DNA of 64,000 bases from NCBI RefSeq assembly GCF_000142905.1, contig NW_013657623.1, forward strand, positions 191,175 to 255,174, read 5' to 3'. The notes under the pieces are model-generated. The model had not been told where the DNA came from, searched no databases, and was given only the letters and a program-made list of their open reading frames with translations. Below are positions 6,079-14,535 of this stretch, one piece after another. The position numbers were made by a program, and so were the translations under genes. This stretch comes from Thecamonas trahens ATCC 50062 (lineage: Eukaryota > Protista > Apusomonadida). Every line of letters starts with the position of its first letter. Position 1 is the first letter of the stretch.

Positions 6079-7413
6079 ATGGTCGGGGCATGGCGACGAC
6101 GCAGGTGGGCGGTGATGGGCGCAGCAATGGCGCTTGTCTGCACCAGCTTGCTCGTTCTCGACCCCGGGATGCCAGTCAATCTCCAGCGCGAGCTCGTCCA
6201 CCGCACCGTGCCACGGGCTGTGCGGACCGTCCGCGGCGTGGGCGGACGATGTGAGGCACGGCGGGGCAATGCGATGCGGCAGCCGCATCGCATCGTTTTT
6301 GCCACACCGTTTTTCGGCGGCGAGTATGGGCCGGCCTCGCGGATGTTCCACGGCGCGGCGTGGGACGGCGGCGACGGGCGGTGCGAGGTGATCGATGCGG
6401 CCGGAGTGAGCGGCGATGTGATCGCCTCGGCCGACGTGGTGGTCTTCCATGCCTTTGACATCGACTCGAGGCAGCTGCCGACTACGCGGCACTGCGACCA
6501 AGCGTGGTTGCTGTGGAACCTCGAGCCGCCGCACAAGTACGAGGTGCGTGCGTCGATCGAGGTTGATCTGCGGCGCCAGGCCGACGCCGCGCTTTTCCAG
6601 CTCCACGCCAACTACCGGCTCGACGCCGATGTGGCGCTGCCGTATCTCGGTGAGCGCGGCGTGCTTGATCGAGTCCGGACCGCGCTGCAGACGGCTGTGG
6701 ATCTGGAAGCTGTCGCTGCCAAGCTGGAGTGGGCGGTGTCAGGGCCGGGTGCGCCGGCCTTCTTCCTCGCCTCCAACTGCCACGCGTTGAACGGGCGCGA
6801 CGAGTACGTCGCCGAGCTTGCCAAGCACATCGGCGTCCACTCGTGGGGCCGATGCGTTCCGAGCGATGCGGCGGAGCTGGCACGGACAGGCCTCGCACAC
6901 AATCGACACGCGCCGGGCTTCAAGGAGAGCCTGCTTGACGCGTATCCGTTTGTGCTTGCCTTTGAGAACTCGGCGGCCGAGTCGTACGTGACCGAAAAGT
7001 GGCATCAGGGTCTGGCAGCACCGACGACAGTGCCAATTGTGCTGGGTGCGCCCAACATAGCCGCCTTTGCGCCGTCATCGGCTGTCTACCTCGACGCGTC
7101 GGCCTACCCATCGCCAGCGGATCTGGCCACGGCCATGCGTGCGCTCCTCGTCTCGCCACGGGCGTTTGCGGCTGCCCTTGTCAGCGATCGCACAACATGC
7201 TCGCCAACATTTGACACACTCTGGGGCTGTCGCGCGCCTGCAACTGCACGTCACCTCGCTGGCGGCCTCACCCAGCTCTGCAATCTGCTCGATCGCCACA
7301 CTCATGACTGGACGGAATACCTCGGGCAGCGCGAAGCGGATCCGGTCATGCTTGCTGATCTCGAGGCGCCCGACGCCGTCGCCTGCATCTCTTGCACTGT
7401 CAACAAAGCTTGA
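6079..7413 (+). CDS. Alpha-1,3-fucosyltransferase (GT10), type II membrane protein
   Basis: ADVVVFH, WNLEPP, NYRLDADV.LPY, FLASNC, YPFVLAFENS...YVTEK, VPIVLG motifs. Basic N-terminus followed by a TM helix. Confidence 0.9.
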   Translation: MVGAWRRRRWAVMGAAMALVCTSLLVLDPGMPVNLQRELVHRTVPRAVRTVRGVGGRCEARRGNAMRQPHRIVFATPFFGGEYGPASRMFHGAAWDGGDGRCEVIDAAGVSGDVIASADVVVFHAFDIDSRQLPTTRHCDQAWLLWNLEPPHKYEVRASIEVDLRRQADAALFQLHANYRLDADVALPYLGERGVLDRVRTALQTAVDLEAVAAKLEWAVSGPGAPAFFLASNCHALNGRDEYVAELAKHIGVHSWGRCVPSDAAELARTGLAHNRHAPGFKESLLDAYPFVLAFENSAAESYVTEKWHQGLAAPTTVPIVLGAPNIAAFAPSSAVYLDASAYPSPADLATAMRALLVSPRAFAAALVSDRTTCSPTFDTLWGCRAPATARHLAGGLTQLCNLLDRHTHDWTEYLGQREADPVMLADLEAPDAVACISCTVNKA

Positions 7414-7502
7414 GATGTATTGTTCTCCGCCTCCTCCCCCCGCTCCGCACCACCAGCCCCCACCCTCCGCGATCCCTTCACCCGTGACCGCCCACCCCAC
7501 TA

Positions 7503-7602
7503 NNNNNNNNNNNNNNNNNNNNNNNNNNNNNNNNNNNNNNNNNNNNNNNNNNNNNNNNNNNNNNNNNNNNNNNNNNNNNNNNNNNNNNNNNNNNNNNNNN
7601 NN
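7503..7602. other. Assembly gap (100 N)
   Basis: Run of N. Confidence 1.
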
Positions 7603-7735
7603 CGGAAAAAATTGCGGACATGGTTCGCAAAGATGCGAGAGTTGTAGCCGAGGACAGGACCTCAACTTTCCCCCCCACCCCCCCCACTCCCCCACTCCCC
7701 CATCCCCTATCCCCCCCCACCGTATCACAAACACC

Positions 7736-9850
7736 ATGTTCCGCATAGCCTCGCTGGCAAGAACATGCCCCCCACAGACAGGCCTCTTCCCCGTGGCTGG
7801 ACTGGCATGGCGCTGGAGTGTGGCAGGCGGTAGCTGGCGTGGCTACGCGACAGCCGCTGCCGGCGGAGCAGGCGACGACGAGCAGGCCAAGAAGGAGGGC
7901 AAGCCAGAGACGAAGGCGGCGATGGGCAAGGCGGGAGGAGTCGGCAGAGGAAAGGACGGAGAGAGCTCGGACATGAAGATCGTGAGCAGACTGCTGCCCT
8001 ATCTTTGGCCCAAGGACTCCAAGGCGCTCCGGACTCGGGTCGCCTTCTCGCTCGCCTGCCTCCTCGGCGGCAAGGTGCTCAACGTCCAGGTTCCGATTCT
8101 TTTCAAGACGGCGGTAGACAGGCTGTCCGAGATGAGCGCGGCAACGAGTGCTGCGGCGAGTGCTGCTGTGGGCGATGCTGCTGCTGCTGCGGCTGCGGCA
8201 GCGCCGGAGATGATGGTGGCGGCGCCGATGGCGGTGCTGCTCGGGTACGGCGCGGCACGGACGGCGGCGTTTGGACTCTCTGAGCTCCGCTCGGCGGTGT
8301 TTGCCACGGTAACACAGTCTGCCATCCGGTCGATTGCGCTGCGGACGTTCAAGCACCTCCACGCCATGGACCTCTCGTACCACCTCGGGCGGCAGACTGG
8401 GGCGCTGGCGCGGTCGATCGAGCGCGGCTCGCGTGGTATTAACTTTCTGCTCTCGGCCATTCTCTTCAACATTGCGCCGACGCTGTTTGAGATCTCGCTG
8501 GTGTGCGGCATTCTCTGGTCGCAGTTTGGCGCCGAGTACGCCGCCGTGACGGTGGCGACCATGTCGGCGTACACCGCGTTCACCTTTGGCATCACCTCGT
8601 GGCGGACCAAGTTCCGCAAGCAGATGAACGCTGCTGACTCGGAGGCCGGGACCAAGGTCATCGACTCGCTCATCAACTACGAGACGGTCAAGTACTTTAC
8701 CAACGAGGACCACGAGGCGAAGCGTTACGATGCTGCGCTGGCAAAGTACGAGACGGCGGCGGTGAAGACCTCGCAGTCACTGGCAGGGCTCAACTTTGGC
8801 CAGTCGGCCATCTTCTCCGTCGCGCTCACCACCATGATGGTGATGGCCGGCAACGGGGTCGCCGCCGGCGACATGACCGTCGGCGACCTCGTCATGGTCA
8901 ACGGCCTCCTCTTCCAGCTCTCACTCCCGCTCAACTTCCTCGGCTCAGTCTATCGCGAGATGCGCCAGGCGCTGGTCGACATGGAGACCATGTTTGGCCT
9001 CCTCGACGTCCAGCCCAAGATTGCCGATGCGCCCGACGCCGTGGCGTACACCGCGCCGGCGACCGGCGCGCCCGGCGAGCTTGTTTTCTCGGACGTCAAG
9101 TTCTCGTACGTTGACGGCAAGCCGCTGCTGAACGGCGTCTCGTTCACCGCGCCGGCAGGCTCCAAGGTCGCCATCGTCGGCGGCTCGGGCTCGGGCAAGT
9201 CGACCATCCTGCGCCTCCTCTTCCGCATGTTTGACCCCGAGTCGGGCTCGATCACGCTCGACGGCCAGCCGCTGGCCAAGCTCAAGCTCCACGACCTGCG
9301 GTCGCTCTTTGGCGTCATTCCGCAGGACACGGTCCTGTTCAATGACACCATCCGCTACAACATCGGCTACGGCGACCTGGGCGCGTCGCAGGCCGACATC
9401 GAGGCTGCCGCGTCGGCCGCACAGATCCACGACGCCATCCTCGCCATGCCCAACGGGTACGACACCGTCGTCGGCGAGCGCGGCCTCAAGCTCTCCGGCG
9501 GCGAGAAGCAGCGGGTCGCCATTGCGCGGACGCTGCTGAAGAATCCGGTCATCCTCCTCTCCGACGAGGCCACCTCGGCGCTCGACTCCAAGACCGAGGC
9601 CCAGATCGCGGCGCTCTCGTCGTCGGTCGGCACCGGCGCCGGCCGGACCGAAATCGTTGTCGCCCACCGGCTCTCCACCGTCGTCGACGCCGACAAAATC
9701 ATTGTCCTCCGTGACGGCCGTGTTGCCGAGTCGGGTTCGCACCACGAGCTCGTTGCCCGCGGCGGCGAGTATGCTTCCATGTGGGAGCGCCAGGCGTCGG
9801 TTATCGACGATCTCGCTGCCGCGCCTGCCTCGGCGCCGTCGCCGGCGTGA
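7736..9850 (+). CDS. ATM1: Mitochondrial ABC half-transporter ATM1/ABCB7 (Fe-S related export)
   Basis: Presequence-like MFRIASLAR. TMD with GKVLNVQVPILFK and DSLINYETVKYF. Walker A GGSGSGKST, signature LSGGEKQRVAIAR, DEATSALD. Confidence 0.95.
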   Translation: MFRIASLARTCPPQTGLFPVAGLAWRWSVAGGSWRGYATAAAGGAGDDEQAKKEGKPETKAAMGKAGGVGRGKDGESSDMKIVSRLLPYLWPKDSKALRTRVAFSLACLLGGKVLNVQVPILFKTAVDRLSEMSAATSAAASAAVGDAAAAAAAAAPEMMVAAPMAVLLGYGAARTAAFGLSELRSAVFATVTQSAIRSIALRTFKHLHAMDLSYHLGRQTGALARSIERGSRGINFLLSAILFNIAPTLFEISLVCGILWSQFGAEYAAVTVATMSAYTAFTFGITSWRTKFRKQMNAADSEAGTKVIDSLINYETVKYFTNEDHEAKRYDAALAKYETAAVKTSQSLAGLNFGQSAIFSVALTTMMVMAGNGVAAGDMTVGDLVMVNGLLFQLSLPLNFLGSVYREMRQALVDMETMFGLLDVQPKIADAPDAVAYTAPATGAPGELVFSDVKFSYVDGKPLLNGVSFTAPAGSKVAIVGGSGSGKSTILRLLFRMFDPESGSITLDGQPLAKLKLHDLRSLFGVIPQDTVLFNDTIRYNIGYGDLGASQADIEAAASAAQIHDAILAMPNGYDTVVGERGLKLSGGEKQRVAIARTLLKNPVILLSDEATSALDSKTEAQIAALSSSVGTGAGRTEIVVAHRLSTVVDADKIIVLRDGRVAESGSHHELVARGGEYASMWERQASVIDDLAAAPASAPSPA

Positions 9851-10052: not shown

Positions 10053-10135
10053 CAACAAACAAATGAACGAACAAACGAACGAACAAACGAACGAACGAAC
10101 GAACGAACTGAAGCGAACGAACCGAAGCGAACGAA
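10053..10135 (+). repeat. Degenerate (AACG)n microsatellite upstream of the 10215 gene
   Basis: gaacgaacaaacgaacgaac... tract. Confidence 0.9.
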
Positions 10136-10214: not shown

Positions 10215-12474
10215 ATGGCCAAGGGCAAGAAGAGCAAGGACTACTCGTACGGTTCGTACGACGACTACAACTACGATGCCGACGGAACCTGGTTCCGCAC
10301 CTGGGGCAACGACTGCTGTGTCGGCTGGCAGCGGATCTTCCTCTTTGTCACCGGCGTCCTCTTTTTCATCGTCGCCGTTTACCAGGCTTCCCATGCCGGT
10401 GACTACATCAACCGCAACATGAAGAGCACCGACTCCACCAAGGCGAACGCCATCTCCTCGGAGGTCATCTCGTTTGCTGAGGGTGGCTCCCTTGTTTCCG
10501 CTGCCGCCGCTGTACGCTCCCTCCCTCCCTCTCCCTTCCCCTGCCCCTGTCCCAGCTGACCTGACCCAGTTCGTTTCCCCCCCTTGCTAACCCCCCCCCC
10601 CCCTCCCACCACCACTACCCGGACGGTTCGTCCTTCTCCACTTGCCCCTACAGTCCCTACAGCCCCAGCAGTCCCTGCGGCCCCTGCAAGAACCCCCCCC
10701 TCCCCCTCCCCCTTCCCTGCTCTGCTCTACACGGCAAAAAACTTCCGTTGGCGCCAGGCAACCAACCAATCGATCACCCCCACCTCCTCCTCCCTCCTCC
10801 CTCCCCCCTCTCCCCCCACCACTGCCCCCACCACTGCCCCCACCACTGCCCCCACTCTTTCCTTTCCCTTCACCATTCTGTTCCTTCCTCCTTCCCTCTC
10901 TCTCTCCCACCCTCCCTCCCTCCCCCCCCCCCCCACCCCTGTTTTCTCCTCTGTCCCGCACTCGCCCGTGGGTGGCCTTTTTTTCTCCTGCCACGGCCAG
11001 CTCCGCCACCACTCACCACAAACCACAACCTCTGCCTTTTGGACTGCTTGCACAGATCGCGATTGTTTGGCATGTGCTCAAGTGGAACGTTGCCTCGCGC
11101 CACATGACCAACGTTCTTGTCTGCCTCTCGCTCGGGATCCAGATTGCCTGCGTCGGTTTCTTCTCGCGCCAGATGAAGGACAACAAGCCGTCGTCTGGCG
11201 ATGGCGACCTCGATGCTGCTATCACGGGCGCCGGTGCCGCGTCTGTGGTCAACGCCGGTCTCTCGATCTTTGCGCTGGTCTTCCTCCAGCTCTTCGCGGC
11301 CGACTTTATGTCCGCCCAGGGCCAGACCAACTGCTGCGACAACATGGGCTGCGCCACCTCGAACGACTGCGCCTGCGACTGCGGCTGCTTCGGCTGCACC
11401 GGTGGCCGGCTTATTGTCTTTGTGACCGGCATTCTGGCCATTGTTGTGGCCGTCGCCCGTGTCGGCAACTACGCGTCGATTGTGTCGGACCTCTTTGACA
11501 GCAAGACCGTCGTTGGCAACCACACGGCCGATGAGCTGTACGGCAACTACGCGATTGCGCTCATCCTCAACCTTGCTGTCCCCGGCATTGTTCTCCTCCA
11601 CGCCTTTGTGTGGAACGTCAACTCGCAGACGGCGGTGCTTGTTATCGGCTTTGCCGGCATCATCAACGACGCCTGGTCGTTTGTCTACTCGTCGGTCTTC
11701 CTCAAGGAGGAGAAGCCGGCCAGTGGCGCTGACAACGACGATCGCCTTGTCTCCCTGGCCTCGCTCGCCATCGTCTCGCTCGCTTTCTCGATTGCCAACT
11801 GGGTTCTGGTCTGGTTCTTCTCGGACAACTTCTTCAAGCATGACGTCGAGGAGGACGAGTCCGAGGAGGAGGAGGAGTGCTGCGACACCATGTGCTACTG
11901 GATCGGCCGCTCGACTGCGCGCCTCATCCTCTTTGTGCTCCTTGCTGTCGGCCTTGTCATCTACATTGTCCGCTTCGGCATTGCCGGCGACCTCCAGTCG
12001 CGCATCCACGACAGCGAGCTCGACTCGTCCAAGGCCGCGCCCAAGGGCAATGCCGCGTCGCGCTTCCTCACCTCCACCTCGCTCTACGGTGCCCCGATGG
12101 GTGCTGCGGTCACCTTCTTCATTGGCCTCGGCCACATGTGGTTCTGGAACCGCACCACGGCCATCGCTACCTCGGCCGCGTTCATGATCCTCTTTGTCTC
12201 GGACATTGCCTCGGCTGGCTACGGCTTCAAGCAGACGCAGCTGTACAACAAGAACAAGGACACCAGCCCCAAGCCCGACGACAAGTACGTCTCGCTCGAG
12301 TCGTTTGCTTTCATCTCGTCCGTCATTGCCCTCATCGTCTTTGTCGTTGCCATCTTCTTCTCGTGCGGCTTCAACAAGGCCGACCGCGGCGAGCTCCGCG
12401 CCGGCCACGTCGACGACTCGGAGGCCTCGGGCGACGAGTACACCTACGCTACCGCCGACGACTACTCGTACTAA
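10215..12474 (+). CDS. ~571-aa 12-TM protein with three AWPM-19/PM19-like 4-TM units; exons 10215-10511 and 11056-12474
   Basis: Phase-0 intron 10512(GTACGC)-11055(CAG) joins SLVSAAAA|IAIVWHVLKWN. Three internal repeats share R-(L)IxxFV, H-xx-(x)-WN and closing helices. Repeat 3 has GNAA.F...G..H..W...A.G...K....LE.F. Confidence 0.7.
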
Positions 12475-12726
12475 GCCATCTGCAGGTGTCGTATGCTCTT
12501 GTCCGCCGTCGTGGAGCGCCGGTCCTCGGTGCTCCACTGCGATAAACGCTTGCATGCAATGCCTCCCTGCCCGCCCGCCAGACACAGCCTTGCCCGCCCC
12601 GTCACCCTGTCCCCATCCGTGACATGTGCGCTCCCCACCATTCGCCACGTGACTGGTGAAGGTTGTGATCACGGCTGCGATCACCGCCACCTCACCCCCC
12701 CCCCCCCCCCATCCCCCTCCACCGCC

Positions 12727-14535
12727 ATGGCGGGCAAGAAACCGACTCGCGAGCACTGGCGGCCAAACGAGTCTGCCACACACTGTTCCCACCCCGGCTG
12801 TGGCACAGCATTCACCTTCTTCTCCCGCCGCCACCATTGCCGAAAGTACGACCCTTTTCCACCTCCCGCCCTCCCCTCCCCTTCTTCCCCCCCCCTCCCC
12901 CCCCTCCCCCTCCCTCCCTCCCTCCCTCCCCTCCCCTCCCCTCCTCACCCTCACCCTCACCCTCCCCTCTCCTCCACCCATTTCACTCCAACCAGATGTG
13001 GTAATATCTTCTGCTCGTCGCACTGCACAAAGGAGCTTCAGCTGAACCAAGACGCCGAGCCGTGCCTGGCCGACGGCACGTTCTGCAGAGTGTGCGACCC
13101 GTGTCACGCCATCGGCTACTCTGAGGTTCTGCCGCTGTCTGCGGCTGCAGCTGCGGCTGCAGCGGCTACATCGACCGAAGCTGCGGCGGCGGCTGCTGGT
13201 CTTCCGATTGACGCGGCCCATGCGCGACATCACAACCCTTCGCATCCATCGTACGGCGGCCTGCCGGTGGCGATGGCGGTGCCAGTGGATGTCGGCCCGG
13301 CCCGGTTTGCGCTGGCCAACCCTGAGCATGTGCCGAGCGAGGTGGCGACCGACGCCGGCGAGGCGGTTGCGGTGGGTAGCGTCATTGATGACGTCCGCAC
13401 CGTGTTTGACAACCTCAATCTCGTTGCCGAGCTCGTCCATCAGCTGCCGACGCTCGAGGCCAAGTTTGAGGTCGTGATCGAGAACCGGTCTGCGCTGGAC
13501 GCCGGTCTGCCCATCCTCAACCACGCGCTCACGCTCTTTTCCGCGCTCCTCGACGGCGACTCGCTGAGAGACGCCCCGTCGGTGTACAACTACTTTGTGC
13601 TTGCCAGCAAGGACATCGCCGCCGCCATCGACTGGCTCGGCCGCATCGACGACGTTGTTCTGAGCGCACCCATCGCCGCTCCCGCTACTGCTGCGGCAGT
13701 TGCGGCGAACGAGCTCAGCGGTGGGGCCGGCGCCGGCGCCGGCTCTTGCTCCGACTCGGACAGCGAGTCGCACGATCTTGTGGCGGCGCCTGCTGCAGCT
13801 ACGCTCCCGCCGTCGCGCCCTGCTCCCGCCTTTACGCCTGCTCCTCCCGCTGCAGTCAGCGACAACACAACGACCTCGGCTGTTGCTACGCTTGTGGCCA
13901 AGCATGAGGCCGACGTCGAGGCAACAGTGACGAGCCTACTCGGCGCAAGCGACGCCGACCGCGAGGCGCTGCAGCAGCAGCTGCGCTACCAGCGCAAGCG
14001 GCTGCGGGCCGACGCGGCGCGGGTGGCGGCCATGGACGCTTCAGTCCTTGCCGAGGACGACCGGCTCCGGTTCAGCCAGCGGCTCGCGTCGGTTGGCGAG
14101 TACCTCGAAGGCTACGCCGCGAGCGTCCTCGCCGCAGGCTTTGAAGACGTGACCGGGCGCGTGTCGGCGCTGGAGGAGTCGTTCTACAATCTCCTCACCG
14201 CGCTTGATGCGCTCGACTCGAGCGACGAGGCCGGCGCCGCCGCTATCTCGGCCGACATCAAAGAGGCCGGCAAGAAGTATGCAAGCTACCGCTCCGAGCT
14301 CTCGGCCGCCGCCGCCTCGGCCGCCTCCCCCATCACCGCCGACGAGGCCGCCCGCGGCATCGACCGCATCGAAGACCTCCAGGAAAACCTCGCCGAGCTC
14401 ATCCGTACGTGCGAGAAGAAGTTTGGCTCGCTCGTTAACTTTGGACGGACCGGCGGCGACGATGCCTCGTCGTCTCGTCTCCAGTCTGCCCGCATCGTCC
14501 ACGCCCAGGTCGCCGACGACATGTTTCGCCTCTAG
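12727..14535 (+). CDS. FYVE zinc-finger protein with C-terminal helical region; exons 12727-12845 and 12996-14535
   Basis: WRPNES..C..C...F.FFSRRHHCRK|CGNIFCSSHC...RVCDPC. The RRHHCRxCG motif is restored by removing a 150-nt GTACG..CAG intron. Confidence 0.88.
   Translation: MAGKKPTREHWRPNESATHCSHPGCGTAFTFFSRRHHCRKYDPFPPPALPSPSSPPLPPLPLPPSLPPLPSPPHPHPHPPLSSTHFTPTRCGNIFCSSHCTKELQLNQDAEPCLADGTFCRVCDPCHAIGYSEVLPLSAAAAAAAAATSTEAAAAAAGLPIDAAHARHHNPSHPSYGGLPVAMAVPVDVGPARFALANPEHVPSEVATDAGEAVAVGSVIDDVRTVFDNLNLVAELVHQLPTLEAKFEVVIENRSALDAGLPILNHALTLFSALLDGDSLRDAPSVYNYFVLASKDIAAAIDWLGRIDDVVLSAPIAAPATAAAVAANELSGGAGAGAGSCSDSDSESHDLVAAPAAATLPPSRPAPAFTPAPPAAVSDNTTTSAVATLVAKHEADVEATVTSLLGASDADREALQQQLRYQRKRLRADAARVAAMDASVLAEDDRLRFSQRLASVGEYLEGYAASVLAAGFEDVTGRVSALEESFYNLLTALDALDSSDEAGAAAISADIKEAGKKYASYRSELSAAAASAASPITADEAARGIDRIEDLQENLAELIRTCEKKFGSLVNFGRTGGDDASSSRLQSARIVHAQVADDMFRL

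Follow-up and report, generated by a model that had tools for sequence, protein, structure and literature searches.

Plant proteins of the AWPM-19/PM19 family (Pfam PF05512), among them Arabidopsis PM19L1, rice OsPM1 and wheat AWPM-19, have a role in seed dormancy, pre-harvest sprouting and the response to drought, and their mechanism is disputed, the two proposals being an osmosensor and a carrier of abscisic acid (ABA). PM19L1 is described as a plasma-membrane protein with four transmembrane helices (TM1 to TM4) that complements a yeast sho1 mutant, and the plant proteins are described with their tails and the helix 2 to helix 3 loop inside the cell (PMC12089654). The authors of that 2025 study state that PM19L1 and Sho1 have no sequence homology and that there are no PM19 homologues outside land plants, which they take as an adaptation to life on land (PMC12089654). 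Sho1 is a yeast osmosensor, likewise a plasma-membrane protein with four transmembrane helices, and is reported to trimerize at a TM2/TM3 interface (PMC4411306), while LCI1 of Chlamydomonas is described as a trimeric plasma-membrane CO2 channel built of four-helix subunits (PMC12988405). Here we describe AMSG_10158, a gene in a 64,000-nucleotide stretch of contig NW_013657623.1 of Thecamonas trahens ATCC 50062 (the whole of which we call the window), and compare its product with these systems. We consider it very probable that this gene encodes a triplicated AWPM-19-like protein.

A transcribed gene with three homologous four-helix units

The gene lies on the forward strand and consists of two exons (Table 1). 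Its spliced product of 571 residues (10215-10511 joined to 11056-12474) is letter-for-letter identical to P0016 in our sequence set, which is AMSG_10158 (XP_013753720.1; A0A0L0DQ78), recorded as an uncharacterized protein of T. trahens ATCC 50062. The splice joint from 10511 to 11056, with GT..AG ends, is present in contigs of all four RNA runs (X1, X4, X6 and X7), although X6 and X7, whose contigs do not differ in length, may represent a single data set deposited twice. In each of the four, single contigs of 1697-1814 nucleotides cover both exons, and exon 2 is represented without gaps to about position 12560. As the contigs cover both exons and skip exactly 10512-11055, the gene model of AMSG_10158 is correct and the gene is transcribed. 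A public gene call at the same locus, P0006 (114 residues), which reads exon 1 through into the intron, is wrong.

This disagreement between gene callers could be taken to mean that an error of prediction or assembly has fused separate genes into a spurious three-unit protein. We regard that as extremely unlikely: exon 2 by itself forms a single open frame (472 codons) that contains units 2 and 3 complete, together with half of unit 1, the single RNA contigs run across both exons in all four runs, and seven other proteins have the same three units in the same order. Separately, at four single positions (10301, 10471, 12033 and 12051) the contigs of the environmental RNA runs carry a base other than that of the window, which suggests near-identical strains in marine samples; the C to T change at 10471 appears to match a Ser-to-Leu difference in P0006.

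The first-pass annotation of this DNA, made from the letters alone, had proposed three units of about 150 residues with four transmembrane helices each, every one preceded by a Cys cluster, and both parts of that description hold. A hydropathy scan with a 19-residue span resolved 11 distinct hydrophobic segments, with TM2 of unit 3 just under the cut-off, and the AlphaFold2 model has 12 long helices in three groups of four (residues 36-178, 213-355 and 375-533) together with one short N-terminal helix, giving units of about 165 residues with four predicted helices apiece. When unit profiles were cut from an alignment of seven full-length relatives and compared over about 150 columns, hhalign returned probabilities of 99.2% for units 1 and 2 (E 9.6e-20), 99.0% for units 1 and 3 (E 7.7e-18) and 99.6% for units 2 and 3 (E 1.8e-24). 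The scores of these real pairs (110.7-151.2) stand against 21.6-25.5 for reversed columns (probabilities 3.4-10.1%) and 7.2-17.1 for shuffled columns (n=24). The three units are homologous to one another, far beyond chance, at a pairwise identity within AMSG_10158 of 20-27%. The clusters, which comprise a CC pair, a stretch of 22 residues with eight Cys and CCDTMC, account for 13 of the 16 Cys of the protein, and each stands just ahead of the first helix of a unit.

Across 23 units taken from this protein and its relatives, a common set of positions is conserved. These are an Asn in the loop between TM1 and TM2; an invariant His followed four residues on by Trp and usually then Asn (H-x3-W-N), located at what is modelled as a two-residue turn between TM2 and TM3; a G-[YF]-x2-K motif at the end of helix 3; and an Asp before helix 4. 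In addition, a column in the middle of TM3 is occupied by D, E, Q or N in 21 of the 23 units, and in 15 of those the residue is acidic; the residues of AMSG_10158 in this column are Q128, D304 and D482.

Relation to AWPM-19 and age of the family

The first-pass annotation had read the protein as a triplicated AWPM-19/PM19-like domain, with HMMER on the separate units as the proposed check, and this relationship holds, though on weaker grounds than that reading implied. Sequences were scanned against 24,736 Pfam models with matches listed at E<=10, the gathering score of PF05512 being 27 bits. Compared directly, unit 3 gave a positive result at 19.8 bits, whereas units 1 and 2 did not; compared through relatives, all three did. 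For the latter comparison we built a hidden Markov model (HMM) of the Pfam-matching relatives from eight units of P0007, P0008 and P0013, which are above the cut-off, and of P0011, which is 0.5 bit below it. The units of AMSG_10158 scored 68.9, 55.5 and 103.5 bits against this HMM, while 84 reversed or shuffled controls reached at most 6.4 bits. The AWPM-19 link is real but indirect, weakly positive in the direct test and strong in the test through relatives. Because the gathering score is an operational cut-off, we class AMSG_10158 as AWPM-19-like, a divergent relative that falls short of Pfam-level membership.

The relatives came from a search of 1,835,955,588 representative proteins with a HMMER profile of AMSG_10158 and P0001 (E<=1e-3), which returned 13 matches. 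Four of the 13, with E between 1e-17 and 5e-4 in this search, pass the PF05512 cut-off, namely P0007 (91.0 bits, in three collinear stretches), P0012 (71.6), P0008 (45.7) and P0013 (28.5); in four others the model is listed below the cut-off (P0011 at 26.5 bits, P0005 at 23.1, P0003 at 16.3 and P0002 at 14.2), and the remaining five, all fragments of at most 182 residues, have no match to it. P0001 itself, the closest relative (617 residues, 45% identical), scores 32.8 bits with unit 1 as its best stretch. A family-alignment search restricted to proteins of 30-74 residues found no relatives, and when the relatives closer to the plant model were aligned and used as the query, P0007 was the sole protein retrieved, probably by way of its low-complexity tail.

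For the AMSG_10158 sequences no family other than AWPM-19 comes near threshold. It had been proposed that a failure to match AWPM-19 together with a better match to MARVEL, CASP or claudin folds would speak against the assignment; no Pfam model for MARVEL, claudin, CASP or tetraspanin was found at E<=10 with the pieces or with the whole protein, so this objection did not materialise. Comparison of predicted structures gives a less specific picture. Single units aligned by VIA-align with the uroplakin tetraspanin 8jj5_A (Z 15.5), FcERI beta 8k7t_B (14.5), sarcospan 9c3c_n (14.3), LCI1 6bhp_A (12.6), synaptogyrin (12.4) and claudin-15 (10.6), all at 5-10% identity and interleaved with soluble four-helix bundles of similar Z, and no match spanned all three units well. 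For helical bundles, a Z below about 13 may reflect a common arrangement only. A Foldseek search of the Protein Data Bank (PDB) with the whole model gave no match at E<=0.001 (best E 0.018, template modelling score, or TM-score, at most 0.22), a profile search of PDB sequences (best E 0.52) found no solved relative by sequence and no AWPM-19 structure, and the ESM Atlas returned only low-scoring unrelated clusters (features at most 0.81, structure TM-score at most 0.27). For the modelled units, the structural matches show a generic four-helix fold and no family membership.

These matches raise an alternative, namely that the units are generic tetraspan bundles, akin to tetraspanins, MS4A proteins, MARVEL proteins or claudins, which organise membrane domains through palmitoylated Cys and resemble AWPM-19 by composition, not by descent. 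The best single-unit structural matches are indeed tetraspan proteins (tetraspanins and uroplakins, the MS4A/FcERI beta/CD20 group, sarcospan, MARVEL proteins and claudins), with which the units share an up-down four-helix membrane bundle at Z 10.6-15.5. Juxtamembrane Cys clusters are also typical acylation sites of tetraspan-type proteins. We nevertheless consider this alternative very improbable, as AWPM-19 is the sole family near threshold and the tetraspan families are absent from the Pfam matches, PF05512 matches among the relatives go up to 91 bits over three collinear stretches, controls of the same composition stay at or below 6.4 bits against 55-104 for the real units, and identity to the structural matches is only 5-10%. 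AMSG_10158 also lacks a large extracellular domain, and there is no convincing match to them beyond one unit.

Three unit matches are found in 8 of the 16 proteins examined (P0001, P0002, P0003, P0005, P0007, P0008, P0015 and P0016), of which P0003 and P0005/P0015 are cut at the N-terminus. Three of the relatives with organism names are the Thecamonas paralog AMSG_04529 (P0008), a protein of the choanoflagellate Salpingoeca macrocollata (P0013), which is a complete open reading frame according to its source and has one complete unit, and a protein with two units from the pinguiophyte alga Pinguiococcus pyrenoidosus (P0012). P0013 also carries a C-terminal zinc-ribbon (PF13248, residues 158-179, E 5.7e-5), a predicted cytoplasmic add-on that the three-unit proteins do not show. 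In a tree of 21 units, from which the truncated unit 1 of P0005 and the fragment P0011 were dropped, units of like position cluster together and those of one protein never do; the tree needs 5 label changes where shuffled labels average 11.1, and none of 200 shuffles did as well. Support for the unit 3 clade is weak (69/80). Because the units cluster in this way, the triplication is older than the split of the two Thecamonas paralogs.

Thecamonas is a marine protist, an apusomonad and not a plant, as the first-pass annotation had assumed of the host from the sequence. The suggestion made there that the family predates land plants agrees with the occurrence of relatives in a choanoflagellate and in an alga of the stramenopiles. 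On the strength of these sequence matches, the protist relatives contradict the published statement that the PM19 family is confined to land plants (PMC12089654). We found no paper linking AWPM-19 to Thecamonas or other protists, the available text of the literature on AWPM-19 and algae reports no non-plant member, and PF05512 turned up in the literature only in a spruce expressed sequence tag paper. The patchy spread of the family, with only 13 representative clusters among 1.84 billion proteins and with named hosts in three protist lineages that are unrelated and include an alga, could instead mean that plants or algae passed the gene on once or several times and that the triplication arose afterwards in a single lineage, in which case the family would not be ancient. 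We judge this improbable. The protist sequences diverge widely from the plant-based Pfam model, most of them scoring at or below its cut-off, and no plant sequence is among the named matches. The gene has a spliceosomal intron and a guanine-plus-cytosine (GC) content of roughly 60-65%, the same as its neighbours, and Thecamonas has two deeply diverged paralogs whose triplication precedes their split.

What is new here is the three-unit architecture, the wider distribution and the trimer hypothesis; the existence of the gene as an uncharacterized protein, and of a paralog that passes the Pfam cut-off, was already on record.

A predicted pseudo-trimer and its possible function

That the fused units might work as a trimer, perhaps as a channel or sensor, had been suggested from the sequence, and the trimer finds backing at the level of models only: the AlphaFold2 model of AMSG_10158 (predicted template modelling score, pTM, 0.79) and the three-copy prediction for P0013. 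In the former, the mean predicted local distance difference test (pLDDT) value is 76, the helical blocks reach 77-96, and the termini and linkers (184-212 and 357-376) fall below 50. For three bundles of 150 residues, a pTM of 0.79 suggests that they are packed against one another in a fixed way.

For the single-unit protein P0013, three copies of residues 1-150 gave an interaction prediction score from aligned errors (ipSAE) of 0.56 (0.52, 0.56 and 0.56 in the individual runs), while the best of three controls gave 0.00; 88% or more of the contacts recur between runs, and partner pLDDT is 76 or higher. In the calibration of this prediction, the mark was reached by 21 of 30 one-chain pairs and by 0 of 23 single chains, and among eukaryotes by 17 of 29, with only 1 of the 7 that lack an older solved relative. 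The best contacts join residues 52-64 in TM2 of one copy to residues 81-93 in TM3 of another, and in the scored copy helix 2 (52-67) lies on one neighbour and helix 3 (74-93) on the other, which is the pattern of a head-to-tail ring. BLOSUM sum-of-pairs conservation did not clearly separate TM2 and TM3 (1.21 and 0.61) from TM1 and TM4 (0.80 and 0.61) and was not used in support of the interface. The three-in-one fusion suggests that such proteins probably act as trimers.

The reading that we favour, with somewhat better than even confidence, is that AMSG_10158 is an expressed two-exon gene for a protein of three tandem AWPM-19/PM19-like units that form a predicted covalent pseudo-trimer and likely serve as a sensor of osmotic stress at the plasma membrane. 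Several points weigh against it. Unit 3 (E 9.3e-4, profile positions 32-135 of 142) and the whole protein (18.0 bits) both stay under the gathering score of PF05512, and unit 2, exon 1 and the exon 2 half of unit 1 have no match to that model at E<=10. None of the 13 matches of the profile search has a plant name, and the five that carry an organism name are all protists; the link to plants is the Pfam model alone. The AlphaFold2 model was built on an alignment of only 13 rows. The complex prediction concerns the choanoflagellate protein P0013 and not AMSG_10158, was made without an alignment, and was calibrated on two copies while being run on three, for a eukaryotic protein. For the plant proteins themselves the literature is split, with both an osmosensor and a carrier for ABA influx proposed, as one source describes it (PMC9919377). 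Finally, topology, location and function of AMSG_10158 are drawn by analogy.

With these points in mind, the following mechanism may be proposed. The model has the twelve helices packed together in a single body. Separate units would join head to tail, with TM2 of one copy against TM3 of the next, and the fusion would hard-wire this trimer, so that three TM2/TM3 hairpins with polar residues in mid-helix would make up the core of the predicted covalent pseudo-trimer. When the positive-inside rule was applied to the loops by eye the result was not decisive, and the topology was taken from the plant description (PMC12089654). On that description both termini, the tight H-x3-W-N turn between TM2 and TM3 and the Cys-rich linkers would face the cytoplasm. 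Each unit would start and end in the cytoplasm, which would place both Cys-rich linkers, the acidic run and the Tyr/Asp tails inside the cell. The juxtamembrane Cys clusters may be sites of S-acylation or metal binding, and the Tyr/Asp tails could carry putative phosphorylation or sorting signals.

By analogy, the protein may sense osmotic or membrane stress, with the polar and mostly acidic residue in the middle of TM3 taking part; we propose this because plant PM19L1 complements the yeast sho1 mutant. A sensor of osmotic or membrane stress at the plasma membrane is in our view the most likely role, put forward here tentatively and with less than even confidence. Its main rival is that the triplicated AWPM-19-like protein forms a channel or carrier for a small solute, either through each unit or through a central TM2/TM3 core, in which the mid-TM3 residue would line the path of an uncharged or weak-acid solute. 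A D, E, Q or N within the membrane, as 21 of the 23 units have, would suit such a path, and rice OsPM1 is described as an ABA influx carrier (PMC9919377). Unit 2 also superposes on the four-helix subunit of the trimeric channel LCI1 (PDB 6bhp; PMC12988405) with an rmsd (root-mean-square deviation) of 2.7 A over 136 residues, although its Z of 12.6 lies in the grey zone for helical bundles, below the value of about 13 under which a match may mean a common arrangement only. Against a conduit, PM19L1 is reported not to complement yeast mutants in K+ uptake, Na+ efflux or glycerol synthesis (PMC12089654), the Foldseek search with the whole model gave no match to a transporter fold (best E 0.018, with TM-scores of 0.22 or lower), and ABA signalling is not established in an apusomonad. 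We regard a conduit as rather unlikely and keep the stress sensor as the preferred role.

Sequence features, neighbouring genes and comparison with known systems

The features of the gene are collected in Table 1.

Table 1. Features of AMSG_10158 in window coordinates
Feature	Coordinates	Strand	Description
Gene	10215-12474	+	Two exons; ATG at 10215, TAA at 12472-12474
Exon 1	10215-10511	+	99 codons; Tyr/Asp-rich N-terminal tail, C34-C35, TM1 and first part of TM2 of unit 1; from sequence, splice model and RNA contigs
Intron	10512-11055	+	544 nucleotides, GT..AG, phase 0, very C/T-rich; holds a 12-nucleotide tandem repeat; joint seen in RNA contigs
Tandem repeats in intron	10813-10855 and 10883-10932		Repeat at 10813-10855 with a 12-nucleotide unit
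Exon 2	11056-12474	+	472 codons and stop; remainder of unit 1, units 2 and 3, C-terminal tail; open frame
Unit 1	10299-11328 (residues 29-190, interrupted by the intron)	+	Predicted helices 36-67, 81-108, 111-140, 153-178; unit HMM 161 bits; H105-x3-W109-N110 at TM2/TM3 turn; Q128 mid-TM3
Unit 2	11359-11853 (residues 201-365)	+	Predicted helices 213-246, 257-284, 287-316, 328-355; unit HMM 154 bits; D304 mid-TM3; NHT sequon at residue 254 in TM1-TM2 loop
Unit 3	11872-12393 (residues 372-545)	+	Predicted helices 375-421, 432-462, 465-498, 508-533; unit HMM 171 bits; H459-x3-W463-N464; D482 mid-TM3; G487-Y-G-F-K491; only unit matching Pfam AWPM-19 directly
Cys cluster 1 (C34, C35)	10314-10319	+	Before TM1 of unit 1; similar cluster in P0001, P0009, P0010
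Cys cluster 2 (residues 192-213, 8 Cys in 22 residues; CCDNMGCATSNDCACDCGCFGC)	11332-11397	+	In the linker between units 1 and 2; modelled with low confidence; predicted to face the cytoplasm
Acidic run HDVEEDESEEEEE (residues 361-373)	11839-11877	+	Linker of units 2 and 3; kept as an acidic run in P0001, P0003
Cys cluster 3 (CCDTMC, residues 374-379; C374, C375, C379)	11878-11895	+	Before TM1 of unit 3; similar in P0001, P0003, P0004, P0007
C-terminal acidic, Tyr-rich tail (DDSEASGDEYTYATADDYSY)	12412-12471	+	pLDDT <50; mirrors the N-terminal tail at 10239-10283

Some of these features recur among the relatives. The NCCDN..C..NDC pattern of Cys cluster 2 is common to P0001, P0002 and P0003. 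The acidic Tyr-rich tails of AMSG_10158 read DYSYGSYDDYNYDAD at the start (10239-10283) and DEYTYATADDYSY at the end (12412-12471); the EYTYATAD motif of the tail is common to P0001 and P0004, and similar Tyr/Asp tails occur among relatives (P0001, P0004 and P0008). Two simple repeats belong to the same region: inside the intron, 10813-10855 is a perfect 12-nucleotide repeat of CCCCCACCACTG in 3.6 copies, and just upstream of the start codon, 10054-10135 is an (AACG)n microsatellite of 19.5 copies.

Upstream, the gene at 7802-9847 on the forward strand encodes an ABC half-transporter (ABC_membrane 122 bits, ABC_tran 114 bits), and its frame ends about 365 nucleotides before the start codon of AMSG_10158. 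A run of 34 X in the translation of the frame 7061-9850 marks a stretch of N, an assembly gap, at about 7550-7660 upstream of the transporter gene, the coordinates being estimated from the position of the run. Downstream, the frame at 12727-14532 on the forward strand begins with a FYVE zinc finger (34.3 bits, profile positions 1-29 of 67 only), and this domain appears to be interrupted by an in-frame, Pro-rich and C/T-rich stretch that looks like an intron and resembles 10512-11055. On the opposite strand, a stop-free frame of 1021 codons (10870-13935, called with no start requirement) extends across AMSG_10158 and this neighbour; it is most likely a by-product of the GC content of 60-68% and not a gene.

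Among the proteins compared, the paralog AMSG_04529 (P0008, 623 residues) and P0007 (619 residues) share the architecture, with three units in the same order that group by position with those of AMSG_10158. They differ in that identity per unit is only about 18-23%, in being far closer to the PF05512 model (45.7 and 91 bits), in having small or absent Cys clusters, and in their long C-terminal tails rich in Ser, Gly and Ala. LCI1 is like a unit of AMSG_10158 in its four-helix subunit, described above, and unlike it in that identity is 10%, that no link exists at the level of sequence, and that the LCI1 trimer is a non-covalent one of separate chains. Sho1 resembles the present proteins in the TM2-to-TM3 contacts that are predicted here between single-unit copies and that are described for its own trimer (PMC4411306), and differs in carrying a cytoplasmic SH3 domain after its four helices; no SH3 or other Sho1-type domain was found at E<=10 in the pieces of AMSG_10158 or in the whole protein.

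A wider proposal would join these observations. In it, AWPM-19/PM19 proteins, including the plant osmosensor or ABA-influx proteins, would be cyclic trimers of TM2/TM3 hairpins in the manner of Sho1; the family would be nearly as old as the last ancestor that apusomonads, opisthokonts, stramenopiles and plants have in common; the Thecamonas proteins would be natural single-chain trimers; and the Sho1 module might be a diverged member. We think this combination unlikely as a whole and offer it as speculation. What the natural fusion does supply is a concrete hypothesis for the working oligomer, a trimer centred on TM2 and TM3 as for yeast Sho1, and a single-chain trimer would be a convenient object for structure determination and asymmetric mutagenesis.

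The closest comparison remains that with the plant AWPM-19/PM19 proteins, whose fold and sequence family AMSG_10158 and its relatives extend to an apusomonad, a choanoflagellate and a stramenopile alga. Both have a unit of about 150 residues with four transmembrane helices, and the TM2/TM3 region, described as the most conserved in plants (PMC12089654), appears to be so among the units here. The main difference is that the plant proteins are single units of about 19 kDa, whereas AMSG_10158 has three fused units in 571 residues; it also differs in its Cys-rich and acidic linkers, its Tyr/Asp-rich tails, its Pfam score below the cut-off and its apusomonad host.

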